Source: Blasia pusilla
Taxonomy: Eukaryota
NCBI GenBank assembly: GCA_050084515.1
Contig: CM114271.1
Coordinates: 26,102,001-26,166,000, forward strand
Reading direction: 5' to 3'
Length of the DNA: 64,000 nucleotides
The translations under genes and the position numbers were made by a program. Below the pieces are notes generated by a model. The model searched no databases and had not been told where the DNA came from. It saw only the letters and a list, made by a program, of their open reading frames with translations. Numbering within the stretch: the stretch's first letter is position 1; the number at the start of each line of letters is the position of its first letter. Below are positions 1 to 52,016 of the stretch, piece by piece.

Positions 1-1980
1 TGAATCTGGAGCAAGTTGTACGTCCGCTTCACCCCAAAGTGACCCAACTCCTCCTAGGCATGTTGCACTAGTTGTGCTCTCTGCAAAGGATGCGGCATTA
101 CGCGTACTCTGCCATCCTCCCAAACCCTCAAAACATGTGTCCCCTCCCAACGGAACTGTCTGGCCCGCTGTAGGATCCGATCCCGCACTCTAGCACTCAC
201 GGTGCTCGCAACGTTGCTAGTACGAAGGTACTCCGAGACTACTCCATCATCATGAATATCTCGGCCACTTGTCATCTCCTCACTTGCCTCGGGATCCAAG
301 GACTCTCCACTAGACCTCGCCATCAAAGTCTCCACACTCTGGCTCTCCATAGCCAACATGCCTAAATAGGCTGATGCGTGCCATCATGACACTAACTCCT
401 CATCACTCTCTCCATGCCATCGAGCTCTAGTTGCATCTCGCTGACTCGGGCATAGGTTAAGACTCAACCCATCTGCATCCTGGTTGAGCGTCCCAGGTCT
501 ATGTACCACGTGAAAATCATACTCCTGCAATAACAGAGCCTATCTCGCAAGCTTCCTTGTAAGCTTTTCGGACTCCATCAACCACTTCAATGGTTGATGA
601 TAAGTGATGATGATAAACGGGTTGCCGAATAAGTAACACCTGAAATGCGCGATAGCCCACACTGCAGCCAAGCACTCACCCTCATACGAATTGTACTTCA
701 CCTCTGTAGCGTTGTTGGAGCGGCTAGCGTAAGCCACCATGAACTCTCTACCCTCATCATCATGCTAGATGAGCATCGCTCCAAGCCCCAACATGCTCCA
801 ATATGTTTCCCAGGTCTATGCACCACATGGAAATCAAACTCCTTCAACAACAGAGCTCACCTCGCAAGCTTCCATATAAGCTTGTCGGACTCCATCAACC
901 ACTTAAGTGGCTCATGATCAGAAATAATGGTAAAGGGGTTGCCAAATAAACAACATCTGAAATACGCGATAGCCCACAATGCAGCCAAGCACTCATCCTC
1001 ATACGAGTTATACTTTGCCTCTGCAGCGTTGTTTGAGCGACTAGCGTAAGCCACTACAAACTCTCTACCCTCATCGTCATGCTGGGTGAGCATGGCTCCA
1101 AGCCCCAACATGCTCCAATCTATATGCAATTGGAAAGGATGACCCTTGATCGGTCTGCTCAATATGGGCGCGAACGTCAATCTATCCTTCAGCAAGTGAA
1201 ATGCTCTCTCCTACTCATCCCCCAATGCCACTCCTGATCTACCTTGGTCAGCAAGGTTAGCGGCTTTGCAATCAAACTAAAATGATCGGTCATCCACGAC
1301 AATGGTAAACCGTGTGGGCCAGCCTAGGATGGCACTACCCACATTTGTGAGTTTTCCCTCATCACATGCCTACAGGGAAGGTGGTCCCGGGCTTGTATGG
1401 GATTCTCATGAGCGACAGTTGGTGGAGCCTAACGCTGATGAGAAAGGACGCCCCCTAATCGGCCTCCTCAAGATGGGCGCGGACGTCAACCTGTCCTTGA
1501 GCAACTGAAATGCTTTCTCTTGCTCATCCCCCCAATGCCACTCGTGATCCACCTTGGTAAGCAAGGTTAGCGGCTTCGCAATCAAATTGAATCCCTTGAT
1601 GTACCGCCGATAGAAGTTCGCCAATCCCATGAATGCCCGAACACGACTCACATCTGTAGGGCGTGGAATGCGTGAGATAGCCTCTACCTTGGTCTGCTAA
1701 ACACCAAGGCCCCTTGGGTATATCGTATGACCCAAGTACTCAATCTGGTCATAGAAGAACTTGCACTTGCCTGGATGTAGCTTCAGCCCATGTAATTGCA
1801 ATCGTTGAAACACCTCCTCTAGATGTCGCTCATGCTCCTCAATCGTGGCGCTAAAGACTACAATGTCATCAATATAATACCTAGCAAAATCCCGACCAGC
1901 CAAGATCCTATCCATGACCCTCTGAAACTCAGCCGGGGCGTTCTTTAATCCAAATGGTAAGAACGACCACTTGGACAAAC
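1..1980 (-). mobile_element. Decayed Ty3/Gypsy pol fragment (RT C-half, RNase H with internal tandem duplications, start of integrase)
   Basis: ORFs give LPFGLKNAPAEFQR...YYIDDIVVF...LHPGKC (RT), LHIDWSMLGLGAML...YEGECLA...HQPLKW (RNase H, repeated) and integrase-proximal WEGTHVLRVWEDGRVR...VQHA. Collinear with the element at 35700-37030. Many stops and frameshifts. Confidence 0.9.
1283..1443 (+). repeat. Inverted ~160-bp filler copied from the methyltransferase C-terminal region of the Gypsy-DNMT family
   Basis: Near-identical by eye to 34612-34761 (VNRVGQPRMALPTFVSFPSSHAYREGG...VEPNADE), in opposite orientation to the surrounding pol. Confidence 0.85.
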
Positions 1981-7405: not shown

Positions 7406-7988
7406 TGTCATGCGAATCCACATCGTCATACAACATACATCGCTGACATACCATACTCACATACATACATAACATAGACGAGAGCATCCACAAACAGAAG
7501 TGTACCACAACTGAAATCCGTGAAAGACCTACTGTCATAAAACACGTATAGAATCACATACAATCGAGCCAAACCCACTCCACGATGGGAGAATCTAGGT
7601 CAAAGCTTGCGGGAAACACCATAGCCAAGAACTCTACTCACTACCAAGGCTAACTCCCTACGCAACAAGCTCAACTCAAAGAACTGACTGTTGTTTGGGT
7701 GCACTCCACACTATATCCTCCAACCTAAGAGCGGGCCCTAATGGGAAAGTTACCCCCAACTGAGTAACCCCCAACCCTATGTATGAAACCGCATCTCTAC
7801 CTAGCCACTACGGTCCTACATAAGGTATGGCCTCTACTAGCACACTATACTGTACGACATAATCCGTATGGTCATGAGAGTTGTCGTGCAAATCCACATC
7901 GTCATACAACATACATCGTTGACATATCATACTCACATACATACATAACATAGACGAGAGCATCCTTAAACATAAGTGTACCACAACT
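7406..7988 (-). repeat. 3' terminal repeat region of element 1: 107-bp direct repeat A (7406-7512, 7882-7988) flanking segment B (7513-7881)
   Basis: The two A copies align with a few substitutions. On minus, the purine tract AGGGGGGCGAG immediately precedes TGTGGTACAC of the first A. The start of B recurs at 29921-29944 and 38007-38080. Confidence 0.8.
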
Positions 7989-8165: not shown

Positions 8166-8306
8166 CTAAATACATCGAGGACAAACCCACCTTCCAATAG
8201 GAACAACATCCATCCGTGGAGTCAAACACATCATGTGCCAACCCCTAGAACACCGATCACATACCAACATACAGGCTGCGTTACCAACAGACCCACACAA
8301 CATGCA
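8166..8306 (-). other. PHD finger at the C-terminus of the Gypsy integrase (not in ORF track)
   Basis: Manual translation: CMLCGSVGNAACMLVCDRCSRGWHMMCLTPRMDVVPIGRWVCPRCI*, a C4-H-C3 pattern with CDxC, HxxC and WxCxxC spacing. Confidence 0.9.
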
Positions 8307-9362
8307 CCTCAAGCTAGCACGTATTATGGCTCAACAGTACCATCCACATTTGGAAGATGACATGGCGCACAATTACGCACATGGTCCTTCCAAAAAAATC
8401 CATCACGACCCTCCAACATGAGAACTCCAAAAGCTAACACCTCGCGCACTCGTAAAATAGTGCGGCCTGCCGTCACATCCAACGTTGTCGGTGCAATCTG
8501 CTGCAAATAGACATAGTCCCCCACATGGAACCTACGAATCGATGGTCGATAACCTCCACCTCGAATGGTTGCTTCGATTGGAGGTTTGCGTAACCAATCG
8601 CATCAAAGATCTCCTTAGGGGTGGGCATGGCATACCTATCGGACTTTGTCTGCCGATTGATAGGTCAATAATCCCCACACATCCGCCTATCCATCCAATT
8701 CCCATGCACATCCTTCTTGGCGGGCATGACAGTGGCAGATGCATACTCCCCATACGACATCTCCACTAGTCCTACTCTGACCAAGTCCTGACTCCTACTT
8801 TGAATCAGAGCCCTCTCCATATCACTATACCTGTAGGGTTGTCGGAAGATTGGCGTATCACTCGACAACTCAATGCGGATCCCCGGTCCCTTCAACGTAC
8901 CCAGATCCTCCATGCTAAATGCAAAGCAGCTCCTATAACTCTTGAGGAACTGATGTATCCGGCGCCGCTCTCCTCCTATCAACTTAGGGCCCATATTTGG
9001 CTCCCAAGTCTCCATCGTGACTACGGTAGGACTCTCCGGCGCGGGTATCGGTGGTTGCTATGGTGCAACCCTGTCTCGAACAACAACACTCGGCCACTCT
9101 CCTGCAGCCAACTGCAAACTCTGATCTCCTCCACATGCAGTGCTCGGAACCATGCTCGATGCTGTGGCTATCATCTCCTGGCGTACCTGCAAAACATCCC
9201 AAGAAGTCCAAGGGTGTCTCTCCCGATCTCCCCTGGTGGGTAGATCTCCTCGGGTCTTGCCCCCAACCACTTCCTCCACCGTCTTGGTAGGCATAGGGCT
9301 CACCAACGCAACTACTGTGATCTGTTGCGATCTCATACGGCGCTGGTCAGCCACTCCCAAGC

Positions 9363-10305
9363 TGAGGATCCATGTCAAGCAGTTCAGGTCCATCGCTTGA
9401 CCCAAGACATGGCATCGTGATGCCTTTGACACTGACGGTACTGCCGTCACTCATGTGGGAAATCCCATCGTTCACTCTCTCTCGTCGGCATTGGGCTCCA
9501 CCAACCGCTGAACCTGGTCATCCCAAACCAAGCTAGGACCGACCTCCTTGTATGCATAGGAAGCGGGGAAACTCACAAACGTGGGCAAGGGTGCCCGCGG
9601 TATGCCTACCCTGTTGACCATAGTCAATGGTGGTCGATCATCGTGTCTGACTGCCTGTGATCAACGACTTGGATTCAGAATGGAATCCACTAACAAATGG
9701 GAGGGGCGCTCCACTCTCGCATACGCCCTACGTAACACCGCATGGGGCACCAAGTTGGTCCACCATAGACGCGGGCGATGGGCTCTAGAACCTACACTCG
9801 CCGCATCCAAGAACACTTCTGGGTCGACCCAAGCATGCACCTGATGAGCACTTGTCACCACCCGTAACGTGCAGTCTCCTAAGATCAGCACATTCTCCAG
9901 GATATAGGCTGGAGAACGAGACTAGTGCTCCTGAAATTGCCGTAAGATCCTCAAAATCTCCCCAAACAACCTAGACCGAGTGTTAGCCAACCCGTTGCCT
10001 CGTCCAACACTCGATTGGCCCTTACATGGCCAACCGGCAATGACCAAATCAATGGCCCCTACCCGCTCTAAGTCCTGCGCCCCCAACAACGAAATATCCC
10101 TCGGTAGGGAACTCTGGTATCCCTCTACCGCGGACGTAGACAATAAGTCGGGAAAACGTAGGCGTAATTGCGCCACATGTCGTAGTGAGACGCGCCTTGC
10201 AAAATCATCACTCTCCACATACAAGTACTGCTGTACTCGCTCTCTTTCCTGCAAAATAGCAGCTAATCGGGTGCTAATCCCTCCAAAGAGATCTAACACT
10301 CGAAT
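9363..10305 (-). pseudogene. DNMT3-like C5 cytosine methyltransferase domain within Gypsy pol (copy 1)
   Basis: Motif I VLDLFGGI, II YVESD, IV AGWPCKG (PC at 10024-10029), VI YILENV (~9890-9907), VIII AHRPRLWWTN, X VLGQAMD. ORF pieces 9922-10326, 9661-9891, 9058-9450 and the RT piece 8665-9015 share one reading frame, interrupted by stops. Confidence 0.9.
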
Positions 10306-13300
10306 ACCTCCTCTGGGGTACACCACACAATGGGTGTGGTATCCAAGGGTGTCATCGTAGCACTCCCTGCTACCTCGGGTTCCTCATACTTGCCTCGCTC
10401 CACGTGGTCTGCACGTGCTCATCTGCCAATCGTCGAAGCTCCTCAGTCGAGCCCCACAGTGGCACCTCTCCTCCACGGAATAATGCGGCTACCATAACAC
10501 TCCTCTCCATAGAAATGTCAGGTTCGGGAGTATCCTTTGCATTGACATGTCCCTCAATCAAATCACTAGGCCAAGTGATGGCACTGCTAAATGCTATTAA
10601 GGTCGCCATCTCTTCTGGTCGTTGCTCGATCACTTCACCTGTGAATCGAATGGGTAATGAGCTAAGGCGCCCATCACCTGAGTGCCATCCTAGTCTGTAG
10701 GATGCTGAATCCTCCCAATAATCCAGGGCAAACCCCATCGGGTATAACACTGCTCCACCAACCAAGACGTCGTAGGACTGTGCATCAATCACTATCACCT
10801 TGGCTCGCACCACGGACTCATCTGTAGGATGTCCCGGGAAAATCCTCACCACGACAACCTGTCGGGTGATATACTATGTGGTACTCGCTCCACCCAAGGA
10901 TGTCTCTATCTGGAATGGACAACATTCCACATCGGCTCTCGTCAAGCCCAATCCTCTGAATCACGCTTTCCCCAACATCAGGGGTTGCGCTCTTGAATCC
11001 AACAAGACGCGCTGTGGACTAGGAGCTCTACCTCCGAGACTGTGGAAGACCTCTCCTCGATTATCCAACAACACAACACGAGGAGAAGCCATGGCACGCT
11101 CTATCGCGGGTCTAGCGGGCTTCTCCGCAATCCTAGCAGCCGCAGCCTGCCATGAATTTGACATGGACGGTCCGAGCATCCGCTCCAAGGGCAGGTCCAT
11201 CACCTCCTCTGCAATCACCTTTGAACGTGATGCAAGAACTCCAACCCCATGCTCACATAGCGTAGCGGCTAGCCGAAAAGCCTTGGAAGGCGTACCCCCC
11301 AACGTCATAACATCGGAAGGAGAAAATAAAGGAGCGCGGTAGACAATGGTGGCCGCTCCCAACAACATGCTTGACACATGCCTCTCCTGAGCATCAACAA
11401 TAGGAGTCGTTGCACTCGCTTCTCTCATCGCCCTGCGTACCTGCACACCAATAACATCACCAACTCTCCAGGAACTCTGATCAAGATCCATCAATAGGGT
11501 CCTCATTGCCTCGGACAACGTGAAAGACTAAGGAAGCCTAGTCTGTTTCCTGGCTTCGCCTCGCTGTGGATCCAACTCTGCAGCTGCTCCACGCGTCACA
11601 ACTCCGGGTGCCTCCATCTGGGCAATCCTGCACATCCAACCAGGATCCTCCATATCTCTGGCTGCTCCATATGATGTCGATGCCACAGATCCGGAATCGT
11701 GTAATCTCAATGCCATAGCGGCAATCTGCTCATGTGGCTGATGTATCTGAGCAGCCATCCTAGCCTCACGCCCGACATCTCCCTCGACGCGTCTAGGTGG
11801 TGGGACTCTACCTCCTCCACGGGCAGCTCCACCACCATGTCAAGAAACTCCAGCTCCTCGTCCCCCAATGGGACCACCTGGTGCACGATCTCTAGGCCCA
11901 CCTGGACTGGCTACTCGCTCTGGTGCCCTCTCTGACCCTCGGTCCGGACGTAACTTAGGAGGTAAACTGAAATACCTGGTGTGTGTATGACCATACCTCT
12001 GACAATAGTCACACTAATAAAATCCTAGTGCAGCATCATCTCCTCCTCCATGCTGAGGCACACGTCCATGACCTAGACGAGTGCAATCGCGCTGATGATG
12101 GGCTCCACCACATGACCAACAAGTGATAGTAGGCGGCTGCTGCTGAGCCGCATATGAAGGGGCAGGTCTCAGTGGCACGGCCTCCCGGTATCCTCCCTAA
12201 GCTCGTGGTGCCACAGTCGACCTATTTCGGAGTCCACGTTGCTGTATAAGTGGTGCAGACAATCGCAACTGCTCTTGCCCAGAACCCATAGTGGCTACGC
12301 TCTCCTTTGCCATGTTGCGCTCAATATTCTCGGCGGTTCTAAAAACATCTCTCAACGTAGGGGAGGTGTTCATAAGAAGCATCCCCTCCTGCACCCGTGT
12401 CCATAGGGTCCGGTCCAACATCGCGTACCATGACTGGATAGCATGAGCCTCTGTCACCCCCTGAGTGACGTTGATCAACCGGCGCAAGCGAGTGTAAGCC
12501 TCATGCAAACTCTCACGCAGGCGCCTCTGCAAGTCGTGGATGCTCCGCAAATTCTCCCTCCGTACCCCCTGGTAGCTCGCCCTCAACTCAGCAAAGAACT
12601 CAACCACAAGGTTGAACCTGGGACGAACCCGACTACACGGTGCAACTGCTCCCATGCGAGTGACCCCTCCTAAACATCACAAGTGGAAGAGGAAGTAGCC
12701 TCTCCTGACTCCTCCTCCTCATCTGGGAATGGCTCCGTCCATGACACATAATGTGGGTCATAGTAGAGCCTCCACGCCTCGATCTCACGTGCATATCTCT
12801 AACAGAACTCATGGTAATCGTCCATGGGCGCCCCCTCTAAATGCTAGAACATACCGTTCCATGTTGTAAATGGGTTGAACTCTCTAGAGTTCTTGGCCCG
12901 CTGGGAGTCGCACCAAATCCTAAACTCTGCTATGAAATCGTGCAACTCAATCGTACCTATTGCACCTAAAAACCTACGCGGTCCTCTACCTCCGTCGTCC
13001 ATCTCGTACGCTCAACTGGTAGGACCACTCACAATGTGTGGTGATGTGCTCACAAACTCCTCTACACCCTCCCCCTTGTCTGACGATGACACAAAAGGAG
13101 GTCGAGGTGGTCCCTCACGTGGAGATCCTCGGAGCCTCGTGCCACTCCGCGTAAAACCTCTAGAGCTACTCTTGGGTTCACCACCTCGCCTCTCAAAGTC
13201 CCGAACGGACGCCGTGATGACCCTCGTGCCCCTCTCACCCGATCACTCTCGCCTCGAAAGTAATCCCTCAATCACTCATCCCAAACATGTGGCACTCGAT

Positions 13301-15566: not shown

Positions 15567-15754
<188 letters not shown>

Positions 15755-16007
15755 AAAATTGAAATATCCTACAAATGAATAAAAATTATCTCAATGTAGT
15801 GTAGTTCTTCTCCTTCTAACACAACATCTCTTTTATTCTTGCTTTCTCTAGTTGACTTGATCGTACCCTAGACGCGTGATTCAATCTTCAACTCCTACGA
15901 ATCTCACTGTCTCCATACATGGTAGGGTTTAGTGCAAGTATGACTTCAAAAGCCTACACAAACGCGCAAATACAACCGGCCTTAGGGAATTACTCTCTTT
16001 CCGGAAC

Positions 16008-21933: not shown

Positions 21934-22315
21934 GCTGCTGCAAGAGCTCACTCTCGGACTCTTGCTGCTGCTGTTTAAGATCTCGGCTGGTTGTTGTTGT
22001 CCTTGCTGCTGCAATTGTTGTTGTTATTGGTGGTGGTGGTGGTGCTATTGCTGTTGATGGTGGTGGTGCTGTTGTTGGAAAACAGGTCTTGCCCTTTGCT
22101 CTCTACTGAAGCCCTCACACAGAAGTTCTGGTTTGCTCTCTTCTATGTCCAACACAGAAGTTAGTCACTCCTGCTGCTGCAAACCAGGTCTTGCCCTTTG
22201 CTATATTGCATTGCTCCAACCTCGGACTCACTCACTCCTGCTGTTGTTTTTGCAATAGCTTTTGCTGTTGCAAGTTCCATCTTTGGACTCCACTTCTGAT
22301 GGTGCAGCTCTTGCT
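21934..22315. repeat. Outer extension of the inverted duplication (low-complexity CAG/CAA/CAC-rich); inverted partner 63618-64000 runs off the window
   Basis: Reverse complement of 63618-64000 matches with few differences. Confidence 0.9.
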
Positions 22316-22329
22316 GACCATCAGAAGTG

Positions 22330-27569: not shown

Positions 27570-27929
27570 CTAGCAGCCGGTGACATAATCCATCTTGAAC
27601 TGGCATCCATCATTGTATGTCTTCTTCCCGCACAATCGGCAATTCCGGTCCCTCAACTCGTTAAACGCCACGATCATCTCATTCCCACTCAGATCGCAGT
27701 TGGACCCACCCACAAACAGTCCACAGTGGCCCGAGCACACTCCCGTTTCGCCCGCGCTTCCTCCTGTGTAGTAGCGGTTGTCGGGCTGGATCTGTCGTCG
27801 CGCAGCATCGCACTCGCCCTGACTCAGCGTCCCGCAACGGCTGGAGCCGCTGCAGTCCCAGGATTCTTCGGCTGCCTGGGCGACGGCGATGAGGGCCACG
27901 AGGGCAACTGTTGCAGCAAAAAACTTCAT
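27570..27929 (-). CDS. Secreted cysteine-rich KP4-like (killer toxin KP4 family) protein, 119 aa, intact and intronless
   Basis: Signal peptide MKFFAATVALVALIAVAQA; 10 Cys in the mature part; CSGSSRC, CRLCG and C-terminal MDYVTGC parallel Ustilago maydis virus KP4 (CRGSSQC, CRVCG, VNYVNSC, recalled from memory). TATA-like TATAAG ~155 bp upstream. Confidence 0.85.
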   Translation of the reverse strand: MKFFAATVALVALIAVAQAAEESWDCSGSSRCGTLSQGECDAARRQIQPDNRYYTGGSAGETGVCSGHCGLFVGGSNCDLSGNEMIVAFNELRDRNCRLCGKKTYNDGCQFKMDYVTGC

Positions 27930-30900
27930 GTTCGCGGAAGTCCTTGATCGTGCTGCTGCCGCTGGATAAGTAAGTGACTCCGATTCCGAGGAGGATTCTG
28001 CAAGATTGGCCTCAGTTCAGACAGCTCGCAGACAATTCAGCTGATCGTTTAGAACTTGAACGTCTGTCTGAAGGCTGTCCTCCTTATACTATACCTAGCC
28101 GCTTCGGTTCAAGCTGATCGGATCATCGGACCTAAAGAAGTCTCGTCACTCGTGACTTTCGTCTCCACTCTCAAGACTTGGGCAGCCTTCAAAACGTGGC
28201 TCGTTTCTTGATACTTCTACAAGCATGGACACGTGCCAGTCACTTACATATGAGGAAGGATATTCCGCAAACGAAAGTTACATCCCTCGACACCAAATCG
28301 CGCACCGACACGACCAAAAGCAGTGCTTCCAGTGGAAGATGGCGGAGTCCCGCCAATCATATGGCTCGTCTCTCGGAATGCGGTTACATGTAACAACGAC
28401 AGCTGTCCTTTCGGCACCCGGAAATTGTTGAACATTGAAGAGGTACATTGTTGAACACAGCTGTGCGAGAATAGAACATGTGAAGTGTGCAGAGGAGAAA
28501 TAGAAGAAATGTTTTGTGGAAGATGCAAAAATGCTAGTGATGGAAATGAATGGTTTCTCACAAAAATGCTAGTGATGAAATGAATGGTTTCTCACACTGT
28601 ATATTTGTGTGCGGTAATAGAATATGTGAAGTGTGTAAAGTAGAAATAGAAGAAAATTTGTGGAAGATATAAAAATACTTTTGATGGAAATGAATGGTCT
28701 TCGGGTGAATATATTGAAGAGATATGAGAAGAAATGAAACATATGTGGAAATAGTATCATGTATAACCAAATTCTCATTATGAGCAAATCTGAAAGATTG
28801 GAATATGCATTGAGAGGGTTTGAACTTATGAAATAAATTGATCAAAACTACATATATTGTGAGTGTAAGGAGTAGAGAATCAAGGGAAGAGAGAATGTAG
28901 AGTTGAATAGAAAAACCCAGTGTCTACGCACTCAACAATATACTCAAAGGAAGAAAAAACAATGTGTATTAATAGAGAAGGTGTGTGAAACCTATGATGT
29001 AAGAATGAAACATATCAGCAAAAGTGCAAGAAAAGCCAGAGATCGCAAATGGAAGCATGCATGTTCCTAAATATGGAACTCAAACAGAAATAACTGAATA
29101 CTTTCATTGAAGATGCCAAAATTGTGAAGAACTGAGTTCAAATAATGAAAGTCTGAATCTTAAAGACTTAATAGAGCTCATGATTTATACTTGGACTCTA
29201 TAGTATTCTAAAGTACTTGTGAACATATTTTCTTACTCGTATCACCATCACCTAGTGCTTTGTTTGTGGCACTTGGTAAATCTGTGGGAGTAGCACATGA
29301 TTCACTCTTGTTGATCTAGTAGTCCACGGGTCTTTGTCACAAGTCAAGTATTGTCCAATACTACAACTTGGAGTGGTAATGATATGGAATTATGATAAGC
29401 TAATTATACATGAAACCATATGACTCTTGGTCTTACCTCATAACTCTGTCGTGCACCAAGTTGCCAGACTTGGGGAGGTTGGGTGGTGTCACGGAGTTCT
29501 TTCTCCCCGCCAACAAAAGGATGGCCAAGCCCATCCCCAAGGGCAATGGAGGTATTACTTGCATACATTGAGGAGGCCCCAAATCCACCCAAGCTAGGTC
29601 CACTGCTATGCAACTCGCTGTGAACACTATAAGAGCTTGATTCGTCAAGATCGCCATAGCCATATCCATGATACATGTGACTAGTATATTTTTGAAGGGT
29701 TCCAAAACCATATGGTTGGGGTCTTGAGCATCCATCCCAAGTTCAGGCCATAGGGGACATGCCCACATCACATCTCCACACCATATGGAGATGTGATGGT
29801 CTTATCTCTCCACTCAATGACATCATCCCATTCTCCACCTGAAGGACGTTGACGGAGGGGGGGGGGGACTATAACCATGGTGTCTCGGTGTTGGTTGGTC
29901 ATACGGACTCATACCATACGGACATAATCCGTATGGTCATGACAACTAGCATTTGAGGAGTACTACAACAAGAATATGAGGTGTATGGACAACAAGTTTG
30001 TCTGAATTTTAGCTCGGAGTACAGAGTTTGGTTGTAGCTAATTTTTTGTGGAGAGATAGCTATGGTGGTCAATTGAATTTAGGTCGAAACAGATTCAATT
30101 TTGGTCAAGCATTTGTGGAGTAATTGTTGATCGAAATTTTGCGGACTAGCTCAAGGTCTGGCTATGGTGGACAGCGGATCGGAGGGGCTGGTTGGTTGGT
30201 GACTCGTTCGTTGTTGGAGATGCCTATCCCGTTGGTAGCGCCCTGGTTGGGCCTCTCTCCATGGCAAAGCATGGCGAACGGGGCGATAGGGGCATGTCTC
30301 GAGCATTTCTCGGCGTTTTGAGGCTTCGAGGCAACTCGTGGTAGCTCGGGGCGAGTGGGCGTGTGAGGCAGTTTTTGCAGGATTTGTGATTTGAGTGTTG
30401 CATAACTGGTCACGCATCTTTGGGCTATTCTACCTGGAAGACGCTTAACTGCTGAGTTCTTAACTATGCCAGTGTACACACTGATGTAGCTCATTTGGTG
30501 CTGTTCCGAGATGTGTTAGGCGCTTTAAGCATCTGAATTTTTTGGTTGATGGACCTCTAGTGCATAGTATGGTGTAGCCTCTCCATGCAGGTGATATTTT
30601 CAAGTGCTTCGAGTCCGCATAGCATGTCATCGACCCGCGGCGGAGTAGCTTTTGCGTTAGAATTGTGTGGTGGGTTCTGTGGATTGAGGGGGAGCCTCGT
30701 TTGGTGGATTGTGTTACCTTGATTTCCATTTGCGATTGGAGGATGGTCGTTGGACTTCCTGTGTTTGGATCCCCTCCGTCGTTGCTTCTTGCTTGCGCGC
30801 CCATTGTTAGGGTTGACGCTGATTTCCAGAGTAGTGTTTATCCTGTGTGCTACCGGTAGTGAGGGTGGAGTGATGACAAGTAGACCGTGGGAGGCTTCTT

Positions 30901-31559
30901 GTGGTGCTGACAAGTTAGGTTGCCTACACCCATAGCTAGTAGAGCTAGAATAGTACAGCGACATCGACGTCACTTGATTACTTAGTGGTGGTAATTTGAT
31001 GGTGGTGCGGCATCAGCATTGGTCATCACGGAGCTGTCTAGTGGTCTGGTTTGGGACCGTGGTACGGCCAGTGGTGGTTTCACACGAAGTGGATTGAGGT
31101 ATCGGCTACCTTTTCCACTTCCGACGGTTGATGAAGAGGAGGACGAGGGTGTTCCAAACACCGAGTCTTCTACGTTGTTATCGAGTGTTGCAACTCCATT
31201 GATTTGGGACATGGACGGGATATATGGGGCCATGAAGGGCCCACGACGATACTCGGGTGCAGTGGGCACCATTGAGTTGGAGGACTTCATGCAGGAGTTT
31301 GATACGTGGTGTGACATGCTGATGTTGCGGAACGTCATGTTGTTTACACCCTTCTTGGCTTGGAAGGGGTTTTTTCAGCACTTGGAGGCACCACCCATGG
31401 ATGATTACCATGAGTTTAGGAAGGACCATGTTGCTGAGATTGAGGCGTGGAGACAACATTGCTCTCCACGCTATGTGTCTATCACCCATGGTGGTATTGG
31501 TAGTAGTGCTCCTACTATGCCAGCCAGCCCAACGTTGAGTGGTACGAGTACGAGCCGGA

Positions 31560-31620
31560 GTGGGGGTACCAGTGGAGGTACCTATGGAGGTACCAGTGGG
31601 GGTACTAGTGGAGGTACTAA
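31560..31620 (+). repeat. 12-bp tandem repeat (GGTACCAGTGGA-like, ~5 units) encoding SGGT repeats in gag
   Basis: Translation SGGTSGGTYGGTSGGTSGGT. Confidence 0.85.
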
Positions 31621-33930
31621 TGCCCCACCATTGTTCAGCCCGGTTGCAGAGTTTATCAAGAGGTTGAAGAAGAACTACCAGGGAGTGAAGACAAAGAAGT
31701 TGAGGAGTCTTCAGGAATTTGAGCGAAAGACTGGTGAGAGTCTTCGTGAGGCATACACTCGTATGCGATGCTTGATTTCAGTTACCCAGGGTGTGATTGA
31801 GGCTCAGGCAGTCCAGTTTTGGTATGGGATCTTGGATAGATAGTTGCGCCGCAGGGTACGTGATGCTCCTCTTATGAGTGATGATTCACCCACATTGACC
31901 CATATGTTTGCTCTATCTGAGAAGATTGAGCTTAACATGGTGAAGGAGAGAGTGGTGACATCCGCATTCAGATGGGATACAACTAATACTTCTAGTGTTC
32001 AGCAGCCCACCTCACAGTCTCGTAGTGGTGGTGGTGGTAGTAGTAGTGGGAGTCATGGGGGGTACACACGACCTCAGTCAGGTCCTAGAGGGACACTTGC
32101 GTAGAGACCATTTCCTTCATTTTCTGCCCCACACCAAGAACAGTCATGTTGGACATGTGGAGGTGATCATGTTAGGAAGTTTTGTCCCCAAGAGGATGGG
32201 AGACGGACTTTGGAGGATGGGCCTTACTCGGCCCCAACTTAGTGTGATCATTGTGGGAGACCAGGTCATCCTCGAGAGCGTTGCTTTGATCTTCATCTAG
32301 AGTTGAGATCAGGAGCTCTATCACCTCGGCCTCTTGGAGCTACTCCGTGGTGGAGTAGCTCCAAGAGGCCGAGGTGATAGAGATGGTAGGGGTGGTAGAG
32401 GTGGACCAGTGGTTGGAGAGCCTACGATGGCCACCCCTACCACTACGACAGAGTCAGCTATGGCTGCTAGGATTGAGCAGTTGGAGCAGAAGTAGGCTAT
32501 TATGGCTAGTATCTACCATAGATCAAGTTCGGGAGCAGGGGCTTCCACCTCTTATGGAGGGGATGATCTCTCTTATATGGCGAGTGCAGCACAGGTTGAG
32601 GCATCAGCTGCAGTTACGAGAGGAGCCACTCGAGCATCAGAGCCACGTGGTGCTACTATGGAGTTGGATCCACACAGGGGTGAGGCTGGGAGGCAGGCTA
32701 GGCTTCCCCACTCATTCTTGTTTTCTGAGGTGCTTAGGACTCCATCCATGGTTCCTACACATTCTATTGAGCCGACAGTGGGGATTGAGGCATCTACATT
32801 GCGTGTAGTAGACACGGATGCAGCATCTAGTGCAGTATTGCGGATGGCAACTTCAGTGTTGGGATCCCCATTGTTTTCGGCCACGGAGCTGATGGCTGTA
32901 GGAGTTGACTTAGCTCGTGTATTTCAGCTAGCAGCCACGTTGTGTGAACGTAGGGGTTTTATTGCTACACGTGCTGAGGTGGATGAGGATGTTGCGGTCG
33001 GGCGACCCTCTATGTCAAGTGTAGCATTGAGTACGAGTCCTACTTGGCAGGCAACAGCGGCGAAGATGGATGCATTACCAGCCCGGCCAGTCATTGATCG
33101 TGAGAGGCTTACACCTGGTGTATGTATGTTGGACAACTGGAGTGGGATATTACGATTGGTAAGTCCTACAAGACAGGTGTATAGACCAGATAGAGTCTTG
33201 TTAGACTCTGGTGCCCAACCTTTGATATTGGGAAAGGCGGCATGTATTGGTTTGGATATTCGGAGGTCCGAGCTTGAGCCTTGCCCATTCTAGATTCAAA
33301 CATCACTTGGAGGAGCCAATGATAGTTCTCAATTCATGACACGGGAGAAGTTTTTTGTACAGTTGAGACCTGATCATGCGACTGATAGCTCCCGGTTGGG
33401 AGTACCTGTAGTGGTCACATCAGCCGAGTCGTATGATGTACTAGTTGGAGGAGCAGTATTGTACCCGATGGGTTTTCAGATGGATTACTGTACTGAGACA
33501 ACGTCTTATAGACCTGGTTGGCAGTCCGGGGATGGACATATGAGCCAAGTTCCTGTGAGATTTATTTATGGGGCTCGACCAGGAGGGTCTTCCCCAACAG
33601 TGTTAGCATCTGTGGCTGGTTTTAGTGGAGTAGTCACTTGGCCATGAGACTTTTTGGAGGGTAATGTTTCTGCTATGGATTCTCCTATGTATGAGGAGGT
33701 AGAGGAGGTCCCTAGTTTTGCACAGTGGCATCCTCATCGTTGGATGTGCCACTTTTGAGTTCAGGCGTGCACTACGGCAAGAGGCTGATCGCCTAGTGTA
33801 TGAGGCTTGGTGTGAGGCTGTTATAGCTCACGAGGAAGAGGAGGCCCCACGGCGGACTCCTACTTCTGGTCCAGTTGGGTTATCCCCTTTGGATACTACA
33901 CCCATTGTATGGCAGTATCCGCCGGAGGGC

Positions 33931-34880
33931 ATTTGTGTGTTAGATCTCTTTGGTGGGATTAGTACTGGTTTGGCTGCGGTGTTGCAGGCCGGTATTCTTG
34001 TGCAGAGATACGTGTATGTGGAGCGAGATGAGACGGCCCATAGAGTCTCATCCCGACATATTGGTTAGTTGATGTGGAGATATCGTGAGTTTTTGCCACC
34101 ATCAGCTATTCGTGGGTACCAGCGTGCTTTTCCGTCACACATTGCATTGTTGGGGGCGCAGGACTTTGAGAGGGTTGGTCTTGTGGATTTGGTGATTGCT
34201 AGATGGCCATGTCAAGGTTATACACGTGATGGTCGTGGTGAGGGATTACACGACCTTAGGTCTCGATTGTTTTGGGAGATGTTACGGGTGTTACGACATC
34301 TTCAGGTTCATCAGGCACGTTTTCCAGCTTACATTCTGGAGAATGTTCCATTGTTGGGTGACACTCGGACTCGGATGATGGCGAGTGTTCATGAGGTGCG
34401 GTCTTGGATTGGACCAGCTGTGTTGTTGGATGCAGCGCGAGTTGGCTCGCGTGCACATCATCCACGCTTGTGGTGGACAAACTTGTTGCCTAGGGAGGTT
34501 CTCAAGTGGTGAGGGTTATTGATCATCCACGCTTGTAGTGTAGCGGGATCCTTGCCTTACAGTGGATAGTATCTTGGATACTGGGCGACTTTCTCAAGTG
34601 GTGAGGGTTATTGATCGGTCACCCATGGCAGTGGTGAACCGTGTGGGCCAGCCTAGGATGGCACTACCCACATTTGTGAGTTTTCCCTCGTCACATGCCT
34701 ACAGGGAAGGTGGTCGCGGGATTCTCATGTACGACAGTTGGTGGAGCCTAACGCTGATGAGAGAGAGCGTGCGATGGGATTTGCTACTGGTGTGACAACG
34801 GTTGCTTCCATTTCTGAGGCTTCACGACGTCACGTGTTGGGTCAGGCCATGGACCTGAATTGTTTGACTTGGATTTTGAG
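33931..34880 (+). pseudogene. DNMT3-like C5 cytosine methyltransferase domain within Gypsy pol (copy 2)
   Basis: I VLDLFGGI, II YVERD, IV DLVIARWPCQG (PC 34207-34212), RSRLFWE, VI YILENV (34339-34347), VIII AHHPRLWWTN, IX ERERAMGFATGVT, X RRHVLGQAMD; linear, non-permuted order. Confidence 0.92.
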
Positions 34881-37800
34881 TCTTGGTATGGCTGAGCAGC
34901 GTCGACTCCGGACTATGTCTGTGGATCTTCCACCCTTTGTAATGAGCTCGATGGCTACCGGGACGGTAGAGGCATCGGCTGGGGGCGAGGAGAGTAGTAC
35001 TTTGCATCCTTGGAGTAAATGGGATGTGATGGACGGGCATGTGGAGTTGGTTGCTCATGCTGGCGGAGGAGTTATTTGCTCAGATGATGGTGTAGCTAAG
35101 GGTGTACCATCTTATGAGGGGGTTGCGTAGCAGCCAATGGCATCATCCTCTCCCTCTAGTGTGCCAGTGGAAGAGACTTGGGAGCCATTAATTGGGCCCA
35201 AGCTTATGGGAGGTAAGAAATGACGCTTGACACAATTCCTACGTGCTTATAGGAGTTTTTTTGCCTTTAGCATGAAGGAGTTGGGTGCTTTGGTTGGACC
35301 CTGTATACGGATTGATTTGGCTAGTGATACGCCAATCTTTCGTCGTCCCTACCAATATAGTGATATGGAGACGGACTTGATTCAGAGTAGGACGTTGGAC
35401 CTTTTGGAGGCTGGATTAGTGGAGTTGTCGCATGGAGAGTATGCATCAGCCACTATCATGCCTGCTAAAAAGGATATGCATGGCAACTACACGGATAGGC
35501 GGATGTGTGGAGATTACCGTCCTATCAATCGGCAAACCAAGGCCGATAGGTATGCCATGCCTACACGTGAGGAGATCTTTGATGTGGTGGGACAGGCAAA
35601 TATTTTCAGTACTTTGGATCTTCGGGCATGATACCATCAATTGCCGATTCGGGAGAGTGACAAGGCCAAGACAGCATTTTGGGGTGTCAACTCTCATGGC
35701 AAGGATTGTTTGTACCAGTGGAAATTCTTACCCCTTGGGTTGAAGAATGCACTTGCCGAGTTTTAGAGAGTGATGGACAAGATCCTAGCAGGGTTGGATT
35801 TTGTTTGGTGTTACATTGATGATATCTTGGTGTTTGGTAACACGGTGGAGGAGAATCAGATAGATTTGCAGATTGTGTTTGAGCGGTTGAAAGCTCATGG
35901 TCTACGTTTGCATCCAGGAAAGTGTAAGTTCTTCCATGATGATGTTGAGTACTTGGGTCATGTGATCTATCCAGGTGGTTTGGGAGTTCAGCAAGCAAAG
36001 GTGGAGGCTATTGCACTTATTCCGCGTCTGGTAGATGTGAGTAGAGTTCGGGCATTCATGGGATTGGCGAACTACTATTGGAGGTATGTGAAGGGATTTA
36101 GTGCTATGGCAAAGCCTTTGAACCAATTGCTGAAATCAGATCAAGAGTGGCACTGGGGAGATGATCAGGAGAGAGCTTTTGTGGAGCTCAAGGCCTAGTT
36201 GGTGGCGGCGCCTATCTTGAGGAGACCTATCAGAGGGCGCCCATTTCAGTTACACACTGATTGGAGTAGGTTGGGACTTGGAGCGGTGTTGACACAACAT
36301 GATGATGAGCACATGGAGTTTGTGGTGGCCTATGCAAGTCATTCGAATAACGCACCGGCGTCGCACTATAGTTCATATGAGGGAGAGTGCTTGGCAGTAG
36401 TGTGGGTTGTGGCACACTTTAGGTGTTACTTTTTTGGCATAGAGTTTACCCTTGTTACTGATCAACAGCCGCTCAAGTGGTTGATGGAGTCTGAGAAGCT
36501 TACAGGGAAGCTTGCACGGTGGGCTCTTATCTTACAAGAGTATGACTTCCAGGTGGTACATAGACCTGGAGTTGCCAACCTTGAGTTGGGTTGAGTAGGA
36601 ACCCATGTACTAGCCAAGAGGATGTAAGTGGGGCTAGATGGCATGGCGAGGTTGATGAGGAGATGGTGCCAGGTTAGCATGCATCCGCCTTTTTATGTTG
36701 GTTAGGGGTGGACTCTAGTATGGAGGACCACATGACATCTTATTCTAGTCAAAGGGTAGATGGCCAGCCTTCAAATCCTAAGGTTGGAGATGGTGGTACG
36801 GATCAGCGTGATATTCATGATGATGCGTTGGTGTTGGAGTTCCTACGGACCAGTAGGATGCCAGGCATAGTGATTGCCAAGGAGCGAGACCGTGTTCTTC
36901 AACGTGCTAAGAGGTATTGATTGGAGGGAACACATATTCTCCGTGTGTGGGAGGATGGTAGAGTACTAAATATGGATGAGTAGTCTTTGCATTTGGCTCA
37001 AAGAGAGAGTGCATTGTGCAACATGCCCATGAGGAGTTGGGACATTTTGGGATAAAGCGTACGTATAGCTTACTCCTTGGTCAGTATTGGTGGCATGGCA
37101 TGCATACTCAGGTGCAACACTTGGTGTCATGTTGTATGGTTTGTGATCGGGTGAGGGCATCATTCAATGCCCCTACACCTAGGCTCTTGGCTTTGATTAC
37201 ACCCCTTGCCTATTATGGGGTTGGGTTACCGTTGGAGTGTGGACTTTTCTTGGGACCGTTATCTCCGTTGATGATTTCGACATCATCGATATGTGTTGGT
37301 GATGGTGGAGCACTTCTTCAAGTGGATTGAGTTGGTGGCATTACCTGACAAGGCAAGTGAAGGAACGGCGTATGCGTTTCTTGATAGAGTGCTTAGTCAT
37401 TTTGATGCACCAAGATTGAAGTCTTGACCGACCGACCGAGTGGGAGAGTTTCAGGGTGACTTTCAGGTCTTGTGTGACAAGGCGTTGATTGATCATCGGA
37501 CCACGTCTTGAGATCATCCAGAGGCGGATGGTTTGGCTGAGCGTGTGGTTCAGATGGTAAAGAGGGCATTGCGCAAGTATGGCCTACAGAAGGGGCATCT
37601 TGGAGATTGGGATATTCAGTTACCATGATTAGCCATGGGGTATAGGTTCAGTCGCCAAGCATCCTTGGCTTCCTTCTCACCTTATTTTCTGTTATATGGT
37701 CGGTGTCCAAACTTACTAGCAGCAATTTGTCGGGAGTCTAGTGAGGTGGTGAACCTTGATGACCCAGAGATGTGGATGAGTGTGTTCTCAGCGGGCAGAG

Positions 37801-38006
37801 CTCTTTCGGAGAGTTATGCCAACAACCTTTGAGAACCTTGCCATTGCTCAACACAGGGATACGTTGCGGTGTGCAACCATTCGGGATGGAGGTTATCAAC
37901 CATTGATTCATAGGTTCCATGTGAGGGACTATGTCTATTTGCAGTCAGATTGCACCGACAACGTTGGAAGTGACGGCATGCCGCACTATTTTACGAGTGT
38001 GCGAGA

Positions 38007-38080
38007 CACTACGGCCCCACATAAGGTATCGCCTCTACTAGCACACTATACTCTACGACATAATCCATATGGTCATGACA
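38007..38080 (-). repeat. Tip of the Gypsy-DNMT family terminal repeat (segment B), inverted relative to element 2
   Basis: Matches ~7806-7879; begins TGTCATGACC on minus. Confidence 0.8.
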
Positions 38081-38289
38081 GTTGTTCTACTCTCATAGCA
38101 TGAGAGGAACTCCTTTGGAGTCTAATGTCCCAACCTCATCTTCCTCAAGCTAATCCTTATCTTCCTTTTCACCAACCTATGGCCTCACTCTTATCTTTAT
38201 CTCATGTATCTTGTCTTTTCTCTTTTTGGTTGATTCTTTCACACTTATACGTTTCATGTCATAGATTCTAACTTAACTATGACTAACAA

Positions 38290-39213
38290 AAGATGGTTAC
38301 ACAAACACACGCTTTGCCATAAATTTCATCATATTGGGATGCGTCTTAGAATTGAGGAAGGCGTTCCATGCCATGGTTGCCACCAATGCTTTTAGCTAGG
38401 GAGTATTTCAATGGCAGGGATGCAAGGCACACGAAGAAGGCATGAGAGATTGAGACTACTGTGACCAATCACGATTTTTGGATTGAGAGAGAGTAGTTTT
38501 TTGCTGTAGCTCAACCAACTATAATTCTGTTGAGAGAGTATGATGTTCATAAAGCAATGATGGGGCATATTTATTGCCGTATTTTTGAGATAATGGAAGA
38601 GACTCATTCTTTTCCTATGACTCCATGGTCCAGTGTGGATGGAAGACGTCGCGGTTATTTTATCACAATGTCTAGAGCTACAGAGATGGTCGATGTTGTT
38701 TCTAGGCGGTGGACACTTATCCACAACAAGTTACATGCAATAGGCTACATTCTTGCCCCTTACAATCTTCTTGATTGTGTTCAAGACGTCACTTCAAATG
38801 CTAAGTGCATGAGAGATTTCAAACAATATGTGAAACTTTATGCAAAGGGGATGCATGGCCTCAATATGATCGAGGCTAATTCTTATGTGGATACTTGCTT
38901 GCAAGAGTTGGGCAACATTGTGAACCATCAAGAACTATTTGTGGGTGATTTTGGTAGGAAAGTTGTTGATTCACTTAGCCCCTCTGATTGGTGGAGCATA
39001 CATAGTCAAGATGTACCAACATTGCACTTTATGGCAAAATCCATATTTGCACAAGTGGTTTCATCTTCTTCAACAGAGAGAAATTGGAGTAGTTATGGTT
39101 TCATCCACAACAAGCACAGAAATAAATTGACCAACGAGCGTGTGAGGGATTTGGTGTACATCTACAAAAACTCACAATTTGGAGATAAGGATGTTTCTCG
39201 GAAATCAAGATAA
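38290..39213 (+). pseudogene. hAT-family transposase C-terminal remnant (dimerisation domain)
   Basis: TRFAINF (~38307), LHAIGYILAP, DWWSIH...TLHFMAKSIFAQVVSSSSTERNWSSYGFIHNKHRNKL...DLVYI. Confidence 0.88.
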
Positions 39214-51900: not shown

Positions 51901-51909
51901 AAAAAAAAT

Positions 51910-52016
<107 letters not shown>

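Follow-up and report, generated by a model that had tools for sequence, protein, structure and literature searches.

The window, a stretch of 64,000 nucleotides of Blasia pusilla DNA, contains a broken retrotransposon with a cytosine methyltransferase between its protease and its reverse transcriptase, and the question arises whether this enzyme belongs to the element. The original prediction had read the order protease (PR), C5 DNA methyltransferase (DNMT), reverse transcriptase (RT) and RNase H (RH) on one strand of a dead copy. Motifs and Pfam matches (above Pfam's own cut-offs), all on the + strand, bore this out for positions 33195-36600, which form the PR-DNMT-RT-RH core of a Ty3/Gypsy-type copy, decayed and cut short at its 3' end, termed element 2. 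Its parts are:

31211..32314, + strand: gag and CCHC knuckle region, decayed (tblastn against Marchantia ORF1 P0005 residues 1-357; 62% identity, frame 2, 3 premature stops)
32451..33722, + strand: linker and aspartic protease (tblastn against P0005 residues 395-810; 67%, frame 3, stops at 32493, 33291 and 33645)
33198-33218, + strand: protease active site LLDSGAQ
33769..35127, + strand: DNMT3-like C5 methyltransferase and tail (Pfam DNA_methylase on 34069-34512, E 2.6e-7; tblastn against P0005, 65-75%, frames 1/2/1, single premature stop at 34066)
33940-33969, + strand: DNMT motif I
34198-34218, + strand: DNMT motif IV (PCQ)
34333-34350, + strand: DNMT motif VI (ENV)
34444-34485, + strand: DNMT motif VIII
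34759-34782, + strand: DNMT motif IX
34825-34854, + strand: DNMT motif X
35128..35136, + strand: family-conserved in-frame stop and context TAG CAG CCA, DNMT/RT junction (sequence read)
35179..36585, + strand: reverse transcriptase and RNase H, decayed (Pfam RVT_1 on 35767-36198 and RT_RNaseH on 36199-36594, RT_RNaseH_2 also matched; tblastn against ORF2 of locus L026, residues 24-492, 62%, frame 1, stops at 35221, 35629, 35764 and 36196)
35812-35829, + strand: RT motif YIDD
~36199, + strand: RNase H start
36588..38005, + strand: integrase, heavily decayed (Pfam Integrase_H2C2 on 36980-37330; tblastn, 11 stops)

The copy is dead, as had been stated: within 33195-36600, seven premature in-frame stops (33291, 33645, 34066, 35221, 35629, 35764 and 36196) and four frame changes (near 33722-33769, 34506-34544, 34720-34738 and 36585-36588) were counted. 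Element 2 ends at ~38005 without a PHD finger or 3' repeats of its own. The homology of other copies to it stops at 37999-38011, and RNA reads of relatives diverge from the window sequence beyond 37999/38005.

A second, diverged copy with the same domain order, element 1, is 65-77% identical to element 2 at the DNA level and lies on the - strand, as does a further fragment, element 3:

10385..12987, - strand: element 1 gag and protease, decayed (tblastn against P0005 residues 9-845)
9193..10320, - strand: element 1 DNMT domain (ORFs; tblastn 60% to P0005, 4 stops)
10296-10267, - strand: element 1 DNMT motif I
10038-10018, - strand: element 1 DNMT motif IV
9903-9886, - strand: element 1 DNMT motif VI
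9792-9751, - strand: element 1 DNMT motif VIII
9420-9388, - strand: element 1 DNMT motif X
9052..9060, - strand: element 1 in-frame stop and context TAG CAA CCA, DNMT/RT junction (sequence read)
8575..9057, - strand: element 1 RT N-terminal part (DNA match to element 2; tblastn)
8166..8602, - strand: element 1 integrase C-terminal end and PHD finger (tblastn against L026 ORF2 residues 899-1034)
8166-8306, - strand: element 1 PHD finger (translation; Pfam PHD E 5e-10)
7406..7988, - strand: element 1 3' terminal repeats (B1 7988-7882, A2 7881-7513, B2 7512-7406)
8..1980, - strand: element 3, RT-RH-INT fragment of a family member with duplicated RNase H

The PHD finger predicted at 8166-8306 is real, its owner being element 1 and not element 2 itself. 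The ORFs 9058-9450 and 8665-9057, which flank the stop of element 1, are one frame. An internal deletion of ~2.3 kb follows the RT N-terminal part; positions 35173-35600 of element 2 map to 9012-8585 and 37873-38005 to 8572-8441. The B repeat of element 1 occurs twice in direct orientation (107 nt, 93% identical, spacing 476), and the 3' repeats have a polypurine tract ahead, end in ...GACA and match the layout of the loci L020 and L012. Nested and rearranged repeats fill the window; within element 3, positions 1283-1446 are a 164-nt piece of the DNMT region that runs in the opposite direction.

The order gag-PR-DNMT-RT-RH-INT-PHD is a family feature and not a chimera. Colinear subsets of it were present in 80 of 82 copies examined (80 loci and the two window copies), 24 of which reached the PHD, and 13 metagenome loci aligned colinearly with 33195-36600 over at least 3.37 kb with 75.5-79.0% identity. 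Intact copies, sought as the original prediction had suggested, were found. L026 is uninterrupted, with an ORF1 of 1369 aa (Pfam Asp protease and DNA_methylase), a TAG and a same-frame ORF2 of 1047 aa (Pfam RVT_1, RNaseH, Integrase_H2C2, rve and PHD); Marchantia P0005 is an uninterrupted gag-CCHC-PR-DNMT protein of 1278 aa. In this branch of the family, ORF1 is gag-CCHC-PR-DNMT and ORF2 is RT-RNaseH-DDE integrase-PHD finger. The same architecture was observed as a single ORF without the stop in P0273, P0276, P0281, P0282, P0284 and P0101. One reading frame joins gag-PR, DNMT and RT, either as a single ORF or across one conserved UAG, and the predicted family architecture holds. Uninterrupted ORFs with this order come from several named plants and algae. 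The hosts of the family seen here are land plants and one zygnematophyte, namely, Marchantia, Calypogeia, Sphagnum, Closterium and the plant from which the window comes. Motif IV reads ECQ instead of PCQ, and motif VI is a variable ENx, in many members of a sister architecture with the order RH-DNMT-INT.

Concerning the methyltransferase, motifs I, IV, VI, VIII, IX and X of element 2 are in linear order and the enzyme is therefore not DRM-like; between motifs I and IV, there is no insert beyond the family's own 87 residues, in agreement with the predicted lack of a CMT chromodomain insert. With a profile of 16 family members against solved sequences, the best 29 matches were DNMT3A/B/C (E 2.2e-15 to 3.7e-12), followed by HaeIII (9.5e-7) and a DRM (1.1e-5), and the tRNA enzyme DNMT2 scored far below the DNMT3 enzymes. 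The AlphaFold model had a pLDDT of 95.4, and among the Foldseek matches listed all were DNMT3A/B/C (best E 3.3e-20, TM 0.72/0.83). The enzyme can thus be considered DNMT3-like by sequence and by modelled fold, as proposed. The catalytic domains of mammalian DNMT3A/3B/3C, its best match in both respects, have the same motif order and align in the motifs PCx, ENV, RxR and GF; still, identity is only 21-23%, and the starts of motifs VIII and IX are 99 residues apart in P0005 compared to ~60 in the aligned DNMT3A chain. The family enzyme has no PWWP or ADD in cis and is flanked by retrotransposon protease and RT.

AGWPCQG (motif IV), ENV and ERERAMGF were invariant in 16/16 aligned ORF1 sequences, each 33-82% identical to the first one, and were the best-conserved stretch of ORF1. 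The dN/dS of the DNMT was 0.10-0.17, with 0.13 for L026/L040 (dS 0.26), 0.17 for element 2/L001 (dS 0.82) and 0.12 for element 1/element 2 (dS saturated), next to 0.11-0.18 for the protease and 0.04-0.17 for RT-RH. Over all pairs, with copies mostly dead and dS saturated for several pairs, the DNMT median was 0.45. The ratios indicate purifying selection on the DNMT, and its catalytic motifs are constrained.

The DNMT/RT junction was compared in 32 copies (30 loci, mostly ~90% alike, and the two window copies). An in-frame stop was found at the same codon in 31 of them (22 TAG, 9 TAA and, in the remaining copy, TAC), which reflects shared ancestry and not independent events because the loci are mostly ~90% alike. 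CAA or CAG and then CCN follow the junction codon across these copies, and L026 and L040 have TAG CAG TTA. Past motif X, the 16 aligned ORF1 proteins each extend for another 78-163 residues, and those of Marchantia and Calypogeia end at that same junction. The tobamovirus readthrough consensus is UAG-CAR-YYA (PMC3159437). Both window copies and L026 fit CAR-YYA after UAG, and the main metagenome subfamily, with CAA CCC after the stop, misses its last A. The stop is not universal, as it is missing from at least six representatives of 50% clusters with this architecture. The conserved UAG thus sits in a tobamovirus-like leaky context that suggests readthrough.

Termini with the layout A-internal-B-A-B were found in L020, L012 and L035 and likewise in element 1; in L020 and L012 the ends are TG..CA and the target duplications are 4 bp long. 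The best solved relative of ORF2 was Ty3 Gag-Pol (E 4.4e-98). Relatives of the window copy are transcribed. Three RNA runs of one study with the same species label gave 3048-3579 reads each with all 30 bins covered; the reads were 90-99% alike, with the first mate on the - strand for nearly all, and only 5 to 17 per run were at least 99% alike, so that they come from relatives.

A DNMT3-carrying Gypsy element is already published, as it was first described in 2018 in the green alga Klebsormidium nitens by de Mendoza et al., and an element-borne enzyme that would be freed by the protease, packaged and act on new cDNA is a published hypothesis for this Gypsy-DNMT3 kind (PMC5890265). By published description, not by sequence, KnitGypsy-Dnmt3 and the window family share a linear DNMT3-type domain within a polyprotein with Gypsy-type domains, conserved catalytic residues (KnitGypsy Ka/Ks below 0.2) and the DIRS-like repeats A-coding-B-A-B, which L020, L012, L035 and element 1 match (PMC5890265). 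The available text of that paper does not name Marchantia, Calypogeia, Sphagnum, Closterium or the window host. SymbioDIRS-Dnmt3 and SymbioLINE-Dnmt of Symbiodinium are also retrotransposons with a cytosine methyltransferase, there in Pol, and with two domain orders within one lineage, and SymbioDIRS-Dnmt3 enzymes showed de novo CG methylation in yeast; they depend on a tyrosine recombinase or on the endonuclease of a LINE (PMC5890265). The window family, in contrast, has TG..CA ends, target duplications of 4 bp and an integrase of the DDE type. In murine leukaemia virus gag-pol and tobacco mosaic virus replicase, an in-frame UAG also precedes the polymerase and the upstream product is abundant (PMC3159437); in the window family readthrough is predicted, and the stop sits further on than gag, behind the protease and the methyltransferase. 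New here are the DNMT in the first reading frame, the conserved UAG in leaky context, the termini with target duplications and the transcription of relatives. In chromoviruses, which belong to Ty3/Gypsy, the integrase carries a chromodomain at its C-terminus; the window family likewise has a chromatin-reader module at the very end of its integrase, but it is a PHD finger (Pfam). The terms 'PHD', 'methyltransferase' and 'Marchantia' are absent from the main text of a plant LTR-retrotransposon survey (PMC6317226).

That the methyltransferase is a piece of a host gene which this one dead copy picked up by accident, or the product of a chimeric assembly, and has no role in the element would fit the many breaks of element 2 and the crowded window. 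This is hardly conceivable given the same order in element 1 and in 80/82 copies, the uninterrupted ORFs of several plants and algae and the selection on the DNMT, and it was rejected on motif invariance, the 13 colinear loci, dN/dS and colinearity. A fold kept without catalysis, for instance to bind DNA or chromatin or to divert the partners of host DNMT3 as a decoy, would agree with the only Gypsy-DNMT3 enzyme tested, that of Klebsormidium, which gave no detectable methylation in yeast, a result that its authors do not take as decisive because human DNMT3B failed there too (PMC5890265), and with the ECQ and ENx variants of the sister architecture. It is improbable, since the PR-DNMT-RT branch keeps the catalytic Cys and Pro, the ENV Glu, the motif VIII arginines and motifs I, IX and X (nearly) invariant across sequences 33-82% identical to the first one aligned, which is hard to explain without catalysis.

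RT-RH-INT might also be made without readthrough, the stop being decay of a dead master or being bypassed by reinitiation or a separate transcript. The single-ORF subfamilies, the off-consensus CAA CCC and TAA variants and the close kinship of most counted copies speak for this. It is nevertheless unlikely. Four lineages that were sampled separately, namely, elements 1 and 2 of the window, the main metagenome subfamily and the L026/L040 subfamily, which is distant and intact, have the stop at the same codon and RT in an unchanged frame behind it; the Marchantia and Calypogeia proteins end there too, and the uninterrupted L026 ORFs do not resemble a decay remnant. Somewhat more conceivable, if still on the unlikely side, is an enzyme active on host chromatin, integrated family copies or RNA instead of its own new cDNA; made from ORF1, it would be abundant and not necessarily particle-bound, and RNA was raised for another TE-borne DNMT in published discussion (PMC5890265). 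Against this, fold and sequence are nearest to DNA-acting DNMT3, with DNMT2 far lower, and the Gag-PR fusion would favour co-assembly with the replication complex.

The preferred reading, to which we give a probability of roughly 85%, is that element 2 is a decayed copy of a family whose intact members encode a selected DNMT3-like enzyme in their polyprotein, with probable UAG readthrough and cDNA as the likeliest substrate. We infer readthrough, cleavage, packaging, catalytic activity and substrate as follows. Most ribosomes would halt at the UAG and yield the bulk of Gag-PR-DNMT, while a minority would read through to the full fusion with RT and integrase; both forms would co-assemble via Gag. 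The methyltransferase would be freed by the element's own protease inside or near the particle and would methylate cytosines, most plausibly of the element's new cDNA, and the PHD finger may guide the integrase during DNA insertion. Across mosses, liverworts and the algae related to them, Gypsy elements with a DNMT3-like enzyme are common.

Element 2 is a decayed retrotransposon on the plus strand at about 31211-38005, as delimited by stop-to-stop reading frames and by tblastn against intact relatives. Both approaches gave the following parts.

Parts of element 2 (frames and tblastn)
31211-32314, + strand, gag
32451-33722, + strand, linker and aspartic protease (PR) with the active site at 33198-33218
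33769-35127, + strand, C5 DNA methyltransferase (DNMT)
35128-35130, + strand, TAG
35179-36585, + strand, reverse transcriptase (RT) and RNase H (RH)
36588 to about 38005, + strand, integrase (INT)

Above curated cut-offs, Pfam recognised DNA_methylase (E 2.6e-7), RVT_1, RT_RNaseH and Integrase_H2C2. The motifs of the methyltransferase follow each other linearly as I, IV, VI, VIII, IX and X. The original prediction had read PR-DNMT-RT-RH on one strand at 33195-36600, in a dead copy. The domain order was confirmed by Pfam, tblastn and motif coordinates, and seven premature stops and four frame changes within this range bear out the dead state. Element 2 is also truncated: its similarity with other copies ceases at 37999-38011, and beyond this point RNA reads from relatives carry other sequence than the window. 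No LTR pair flanking it was found within the window and, being truncated, the insertion cannot be dated. Just past the truncation lies a hAT transposase fragment (38497-39213, + strand; Pfam Dimer_Tnp_hAT, E 1.4e-12). The region of element 2 is enclosed by a near-perfect (99-100%) inverted duplication with arms of about 8-10 kb (21934-29916 and 53313-64000); it reflects a recent inverted segmental duplication or else an artefact of the assembly.

The same domain order was found in other copies. Element 1, a diverged copy on the minus strand (7406-12987), shares 65-77% DNA identity with element 2 and the order gag-PR-DNMT-RT; beyond the RT, 2.3 kb are deleted internally, and the copy continues with the end of the integrase and a PHD finger (8166-8306). 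JGI metagenome contigs were scanned with two conserved peptides, which gave at least 600 pattern matches; among the matches listed, 312 were confirmed as relatives and 80 loci were kept. Thirteen loci among these matches aligned end to end with 33195-36600 at 75.5-79.0% identity. Copies were compared as found. Taking the 80 loci among the matches listed and the two window copies together, 80 of 82 copies keep the order GAG-PR-DNMT-RT-RH-INT-PHD, in whole or in part, and 24 extend as far as the PHD finger; the two non-colinear exceptions (L043 and L055) look like neighbouring copies. A further metagenome subfamily among the matches listed is strongly decayed and has 29-34% identity to P0005, the first-frame protein of Marchantia. 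The metagenome locus L026 is uninterrupted. Its ORF1 of 1369 aa contains protease and DNA_methylase (Pfam) and is followed by a TAG and, in the same frame, by an ORF2 of 1047 aa with RVT_1, RNase H, Integrase_H2C2, rve and PHD in this order. The methyltransferase is thus a family trait of the element.

The sense strand is G+T-rich, as seen in a comparison of the window copies and the loci L001, L020 and L026. GC skew was +0.19 to +0.25 in the window (30001-38000, 8001-14000 and 1-2000) and +0.11 in L026. Since the asymmetry is also present in this intact copy, it belongs to the family and is not a product of decay. CpG observed/expected was 0.53-0.72 in the same copies and loci. A stretch at 52001-53313 has a strong negative GC skew and in this resembles a minus-strand family copy; neither the family nor the metagenome loci showed detectable DNA similarity to it. 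Element 3, an RT-RH-INT fragment at 8-1980 on the minus strand, has its RNase H region duplicated in tandem (491-1107; 300 nt, 86% identical) and contains, in opposite orientation, a 164-nt piece of DNMT sequence (1283-1446) that is 88% identical to 34612-34765. The window also contains an Integrase_H2C2 match at 51342-51866 (+ strand, E 7.4e-20), the integrase zinc-binding domain of another, unrelated retroelement, and long (CT)n/(GA)n microsatellites at 15507-15796 and 51847-52062.

The kind of methyltransferase (METHYLTRANSFERASE) was judged with a 16-member family profile. Its 29 best solved sequences were all DNMT3A, 3C or 3B (E 2.2e-15 to 3.7e-12), followed by HaeIII (9.5e-7), tobacco DRM (1.1e-5) and HhaI (4.7e-5). 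DRM chains scored between 1e-5 and 9e-3, and no DNMT1 or CMT chain among the solved sequences scored 0.01 or below. The L026 domain was modelled with AlphaFold at a pLDDT of 95.4 and a pTM of 0.92, and with this model Foldseek returned DNMT3A/B/C catalytic domains throughout among the matches listed, the best with E 3.3e-20 and a TM of 0.72/0.83, at 21-23% identity. Judged against solved structures alone, profile and model thus class the family enzyme as DNMT3-like. The motif pairings with DNMT3 that had been proposed from the sequence held residue by residue in an alignment to DNMT3A, and the distances between motifs do not vary within the family. Their linear order differs from the permuted one of DRM; unlike CMT, which has a chromodomain within the catalytic domain, the family gave no Chromo match in Pfam. 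DNMT3 enzymes carry N-terminal PWWP and ADD reader domains. Neither was found in ORF1, where Pfam gives gag, protease and DNA_methylase alone, and the family has instead a PHD finger at the integrase end, in ORF2. The best 150 representatives in a HMMER search with the L026 domain were all element-borne relatives or fragments, and an ESM Atlas look-up gave generic DNA_methylase clusters alone.

Constraint on the enzyme was studied in an alignment of 16 sequences headed by P0005, to which the others are 33-82% identical. All 16 share AGWPCQG, ENV and ERERAMGF without change, motifs I, VIII and X each contain core residues that do not vary, and the DNMT domain is the best-conserved part of ORF1. 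Codons were compared by NG86, skipping broken ones, in five pairs that include the intact copies L026, L037 and L040.

Codon comparison of the DNMT domain
L026 and L040: dN/dS 0.13, dS 0.26
L026 and L037: dN/dS 0.12, dS about 1.4
L037 and L040: dN/dS 0.10, dS about 1.4
element 2 and L001 (metagenome locus): dN/dS 0.17, dS 0.82
element 1 and element 2: dN/dS 0.12, dS saturated

The other domains gave 0.11-0.18 (protease) and 0.04-0.17 (RT-RH). Over all pairs, of which the copies are mostly dead and close kin, the median dN/dS was 0.45 for DNMT, 0.45 for gag, 0.55 for PR and 0.40 for RT-RH; these higher values are expected from neutral decay mixed in.

In all 16 ORF1 proteins aligned, those of Marchantia and Calypogeia included, the frame ends 78-163 residues past motif X. 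Among the matches listed and the window copies, an in-frame stop stands at one homologous codon in 31 of 32 junctions (22 TAG, 9 TAA and one TAC), the counted copies being mostly close kin. In these 32 junctions the codon is followed by CAA or CAG and then CCN, and the RT continues in that frame. The sequence is TAG CAG CCA and TAG CAA CCA in the window copies and TAG CAG TTA in L026 and L040, and the main metagenome subfamily has CCC instead of YYA after CAA. UAG-CAR-YYA is the efficient readthrough consensus in tobacco mosaic virus (PMC3159437). From the junctions we infer that RT-RH-INT-PHD would be made by stop-codon readthrough, with Gag-PR-DNMT as the abundant product. Candidates for programmed readthrough would be rare among plant retrotransposons, and the conserved UAG-CAR-YYA junction would be one of them. 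In at least six representatives, this architecture is encoded by a single ORF of 2188-2374 aa without the stop (P0101, P0273, P0276, P0281, P0282 and P0284). The DNMT is therefore fused in frame with or without a stop, in one-ORF copies as well as across the UAG, and the in-frame fusion on which the original prediction depended stands.

The element was assigned to a class by its domains and its ends. L026 shows the Ty3/Gypsy order of PR, RT, RNase H and DDE integrase across ORF1 and ORF2 (Pfam), and the best solved relative of ORF2 is Ty3 Gag-Pol (E 4.4e-98), followed by the Ty3 RT (8.2e-75). The loci L020 and L012 have TG..CA ends and 4-bp target duplications, but their repeats are arranged A-internal-B-A-B, unlike a simple LTR pair. 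In both (L020, 7506-16715; L012, 1679-10805), A of about 342 nt is followed by the internal region, a polypurine tract, B of about 113 nt, A and B.

Repeats of L020 (positions in that locus)
7506-7844, repeat A
16147-16261, repeat B
16259-16601, repeat A
16601-16715, repeat B

The 3' B-A-B was also seen in L035 and in element 1 of the window (7988-7406); no repeat pair was found in the 975 and 1091 bases of flank on the L026 contig. On either side of element 2 (29932-29942 and 38068-38078), the start of repeat A is found in minus orientation, to the right as part of an 82-nt fragment that is 91% identical to 7803-7884. DIRS/Ngaro elements have a tyrosine recombinase, whereas ORF2 of L026 has Integrase_H2C2 and rve and the insertions have 4-bp duplications; no Phage_integrase match was found by Pfam in ORF1 or ORF2 of L026. 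The A-coding-B-A-B arrangement of L020 and L012, with DIRS-like repeats and Gypsy-like domains, is also described for KnitGypsy-Dnmt3 of Klebsormidium (PMC5890265). That element has a linear DNMT3-type domain in a Gypsy-type polyprotein, as Pfam, profile and copy survey found here, and conserved catalytic residues with Ka/Ks <0.2, comparable to the invariant motifs and the dN/dS of 0.10-0.17 for five pairs. The nearest solved relatives of the PHD finger are those of CHD4, PHF12, KAT6A, PHF21A, ATXR5, DPF3, KDM5A/B, UHRF1 and AIRE. These mostly bind the unmodified H3 tail and not H3K4me3, and the PHD type may serve as a lead for integration targeting.

RNA-seq reads covered 30/30 bins of 30900-38100 in three runs of one study (3280, 3048 and 3579 reads), which carry the species label of the best DNA source; no RNA data listed with the exact stretch of element 2 were found. 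The first mate lay on the minus strand in nearly all reads, which means sense RNA in most stranded libraries. As few as 5, 8 and 17 reads per run were at least 99% alike to element 2, so that the transcripts come from 90-99% identical relatives and not from element 2. These relatives differ from it at two or more of the premature stops and at two frame breaks. Reads joining 36771 to 37817 with nine other letters between (16, 30 and 44 in the three runs) indicate that internally deleted relatives, with about 1 kb of integrase missing, are transcribed. Matching DNA contigs of the same species amounted to 145,244 pieces, and the family is thus a high-copy one.

An exhaustive HMMER search with the L026 domain against 1.84 billion representatives gave 2935, 846 and 273 clusters at E ≤1e-3, 1e-10 and 1e-30. 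In 236 DNMT-bearing proteins, the domain lies between PR and RT in 58 and between RNase H and integrase in 109, and 69 show the DNMT only. Named records with the order PR-DNMT-RT are from Marchantia, Calypogeia, Sphagnum and Closterium, those with RH-DNMT-INT from Scenedesmus, Monoraphidium and Cymbomonas; as few records carry names, this division by host is no more than a lead. In many RH-DNMT-INT proteins (P0048-P0082), motif IV reads ECQ and not PCQ, with the cysteine kept, and ENT, ENA or ENS replaces ENV in motif VI. This unusual catalytic loop may change or abolish activity. Homology searches and cluster look-ups gave no Klebsormidium protein, which does not imply absence as they were word-based with few named records.

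De Mendoza et al. (2018) reported a DNMT3 in a Klebsormidium Gypsy element and proposed self-methylation of its cDNA; Marchantia does not occur in that text (PMC5890265). In their accessible parts, PMC12344493 and the preprint 10.64898/2026.05.21.726589 refer to retrotransposon DNMT3 in 'streptophytes (Gypsy-DNMT3)' solely by citing the 2018 paper, and a survey of plant LTR retrotransposons (PMC6317226) mentions neither methyltransferase nor PHD in its main text. In the literature, no paper was found that names a Gypsy-DNMT3 family of bryophytes, the UAG or the placement in ORF1, although supplements may hold bryophyte copies, and none was found on five Marchantia gene identifiers. The kind of element is thus already known, and the present family adds a member to it, together with the ORF1 placement, the candidate readthrough, the PHD finger, the two domain orders and tractable bryophyte hosts.

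The original prediction of a self-methylating retrotransposon is therefore partly supported: the in-frame DNMT3-like domain as a family trait and the dead copy stand, and methylation of the element's own cDNA is the hypothesis already published for this kind of element. It also enters a wider reading, to which we give a probability of roughly one in four. Here, one ancient green-lineage Ty3/Gypsy clade would combine a DNMT3-like writer with a PHD reader of the type for unmodified H3 tails. In streptophytes (Closterium, liverworts and mosses), the writer would have shifted to the Gag-level frame, ahead of a UAG with programmed readthrough, and hence be a stoichiometric particle component that marks its own cDNA before chromatin-guided integration; in chlorophytes, it would lie between RNase H and integrase.

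Hosts fight transposons mainly by cytosine methylation, and an element with its own de novo methyltransferase is therefore a paradox. The published cases are from a dinoflagellate and an alga not easily manipulated, whereas the present family occurs in the genetically tractable Marchantia, with at least one uninterrupted first reading frame (P0005), as well as in Sphagnum, Closterium and Blasia pusilla, where relatives are transcribed. Methylation of the cDNA, the reason for placing the enzyme in the abundant ORF1 product and steering of integration by the PHD finger thus become directly testable. If the wider reading is true, acquisition of the DNMT would predate land plants and not be an event of the Klebsormidium lineage, and such elements could have fed de novo methylation in early plants.
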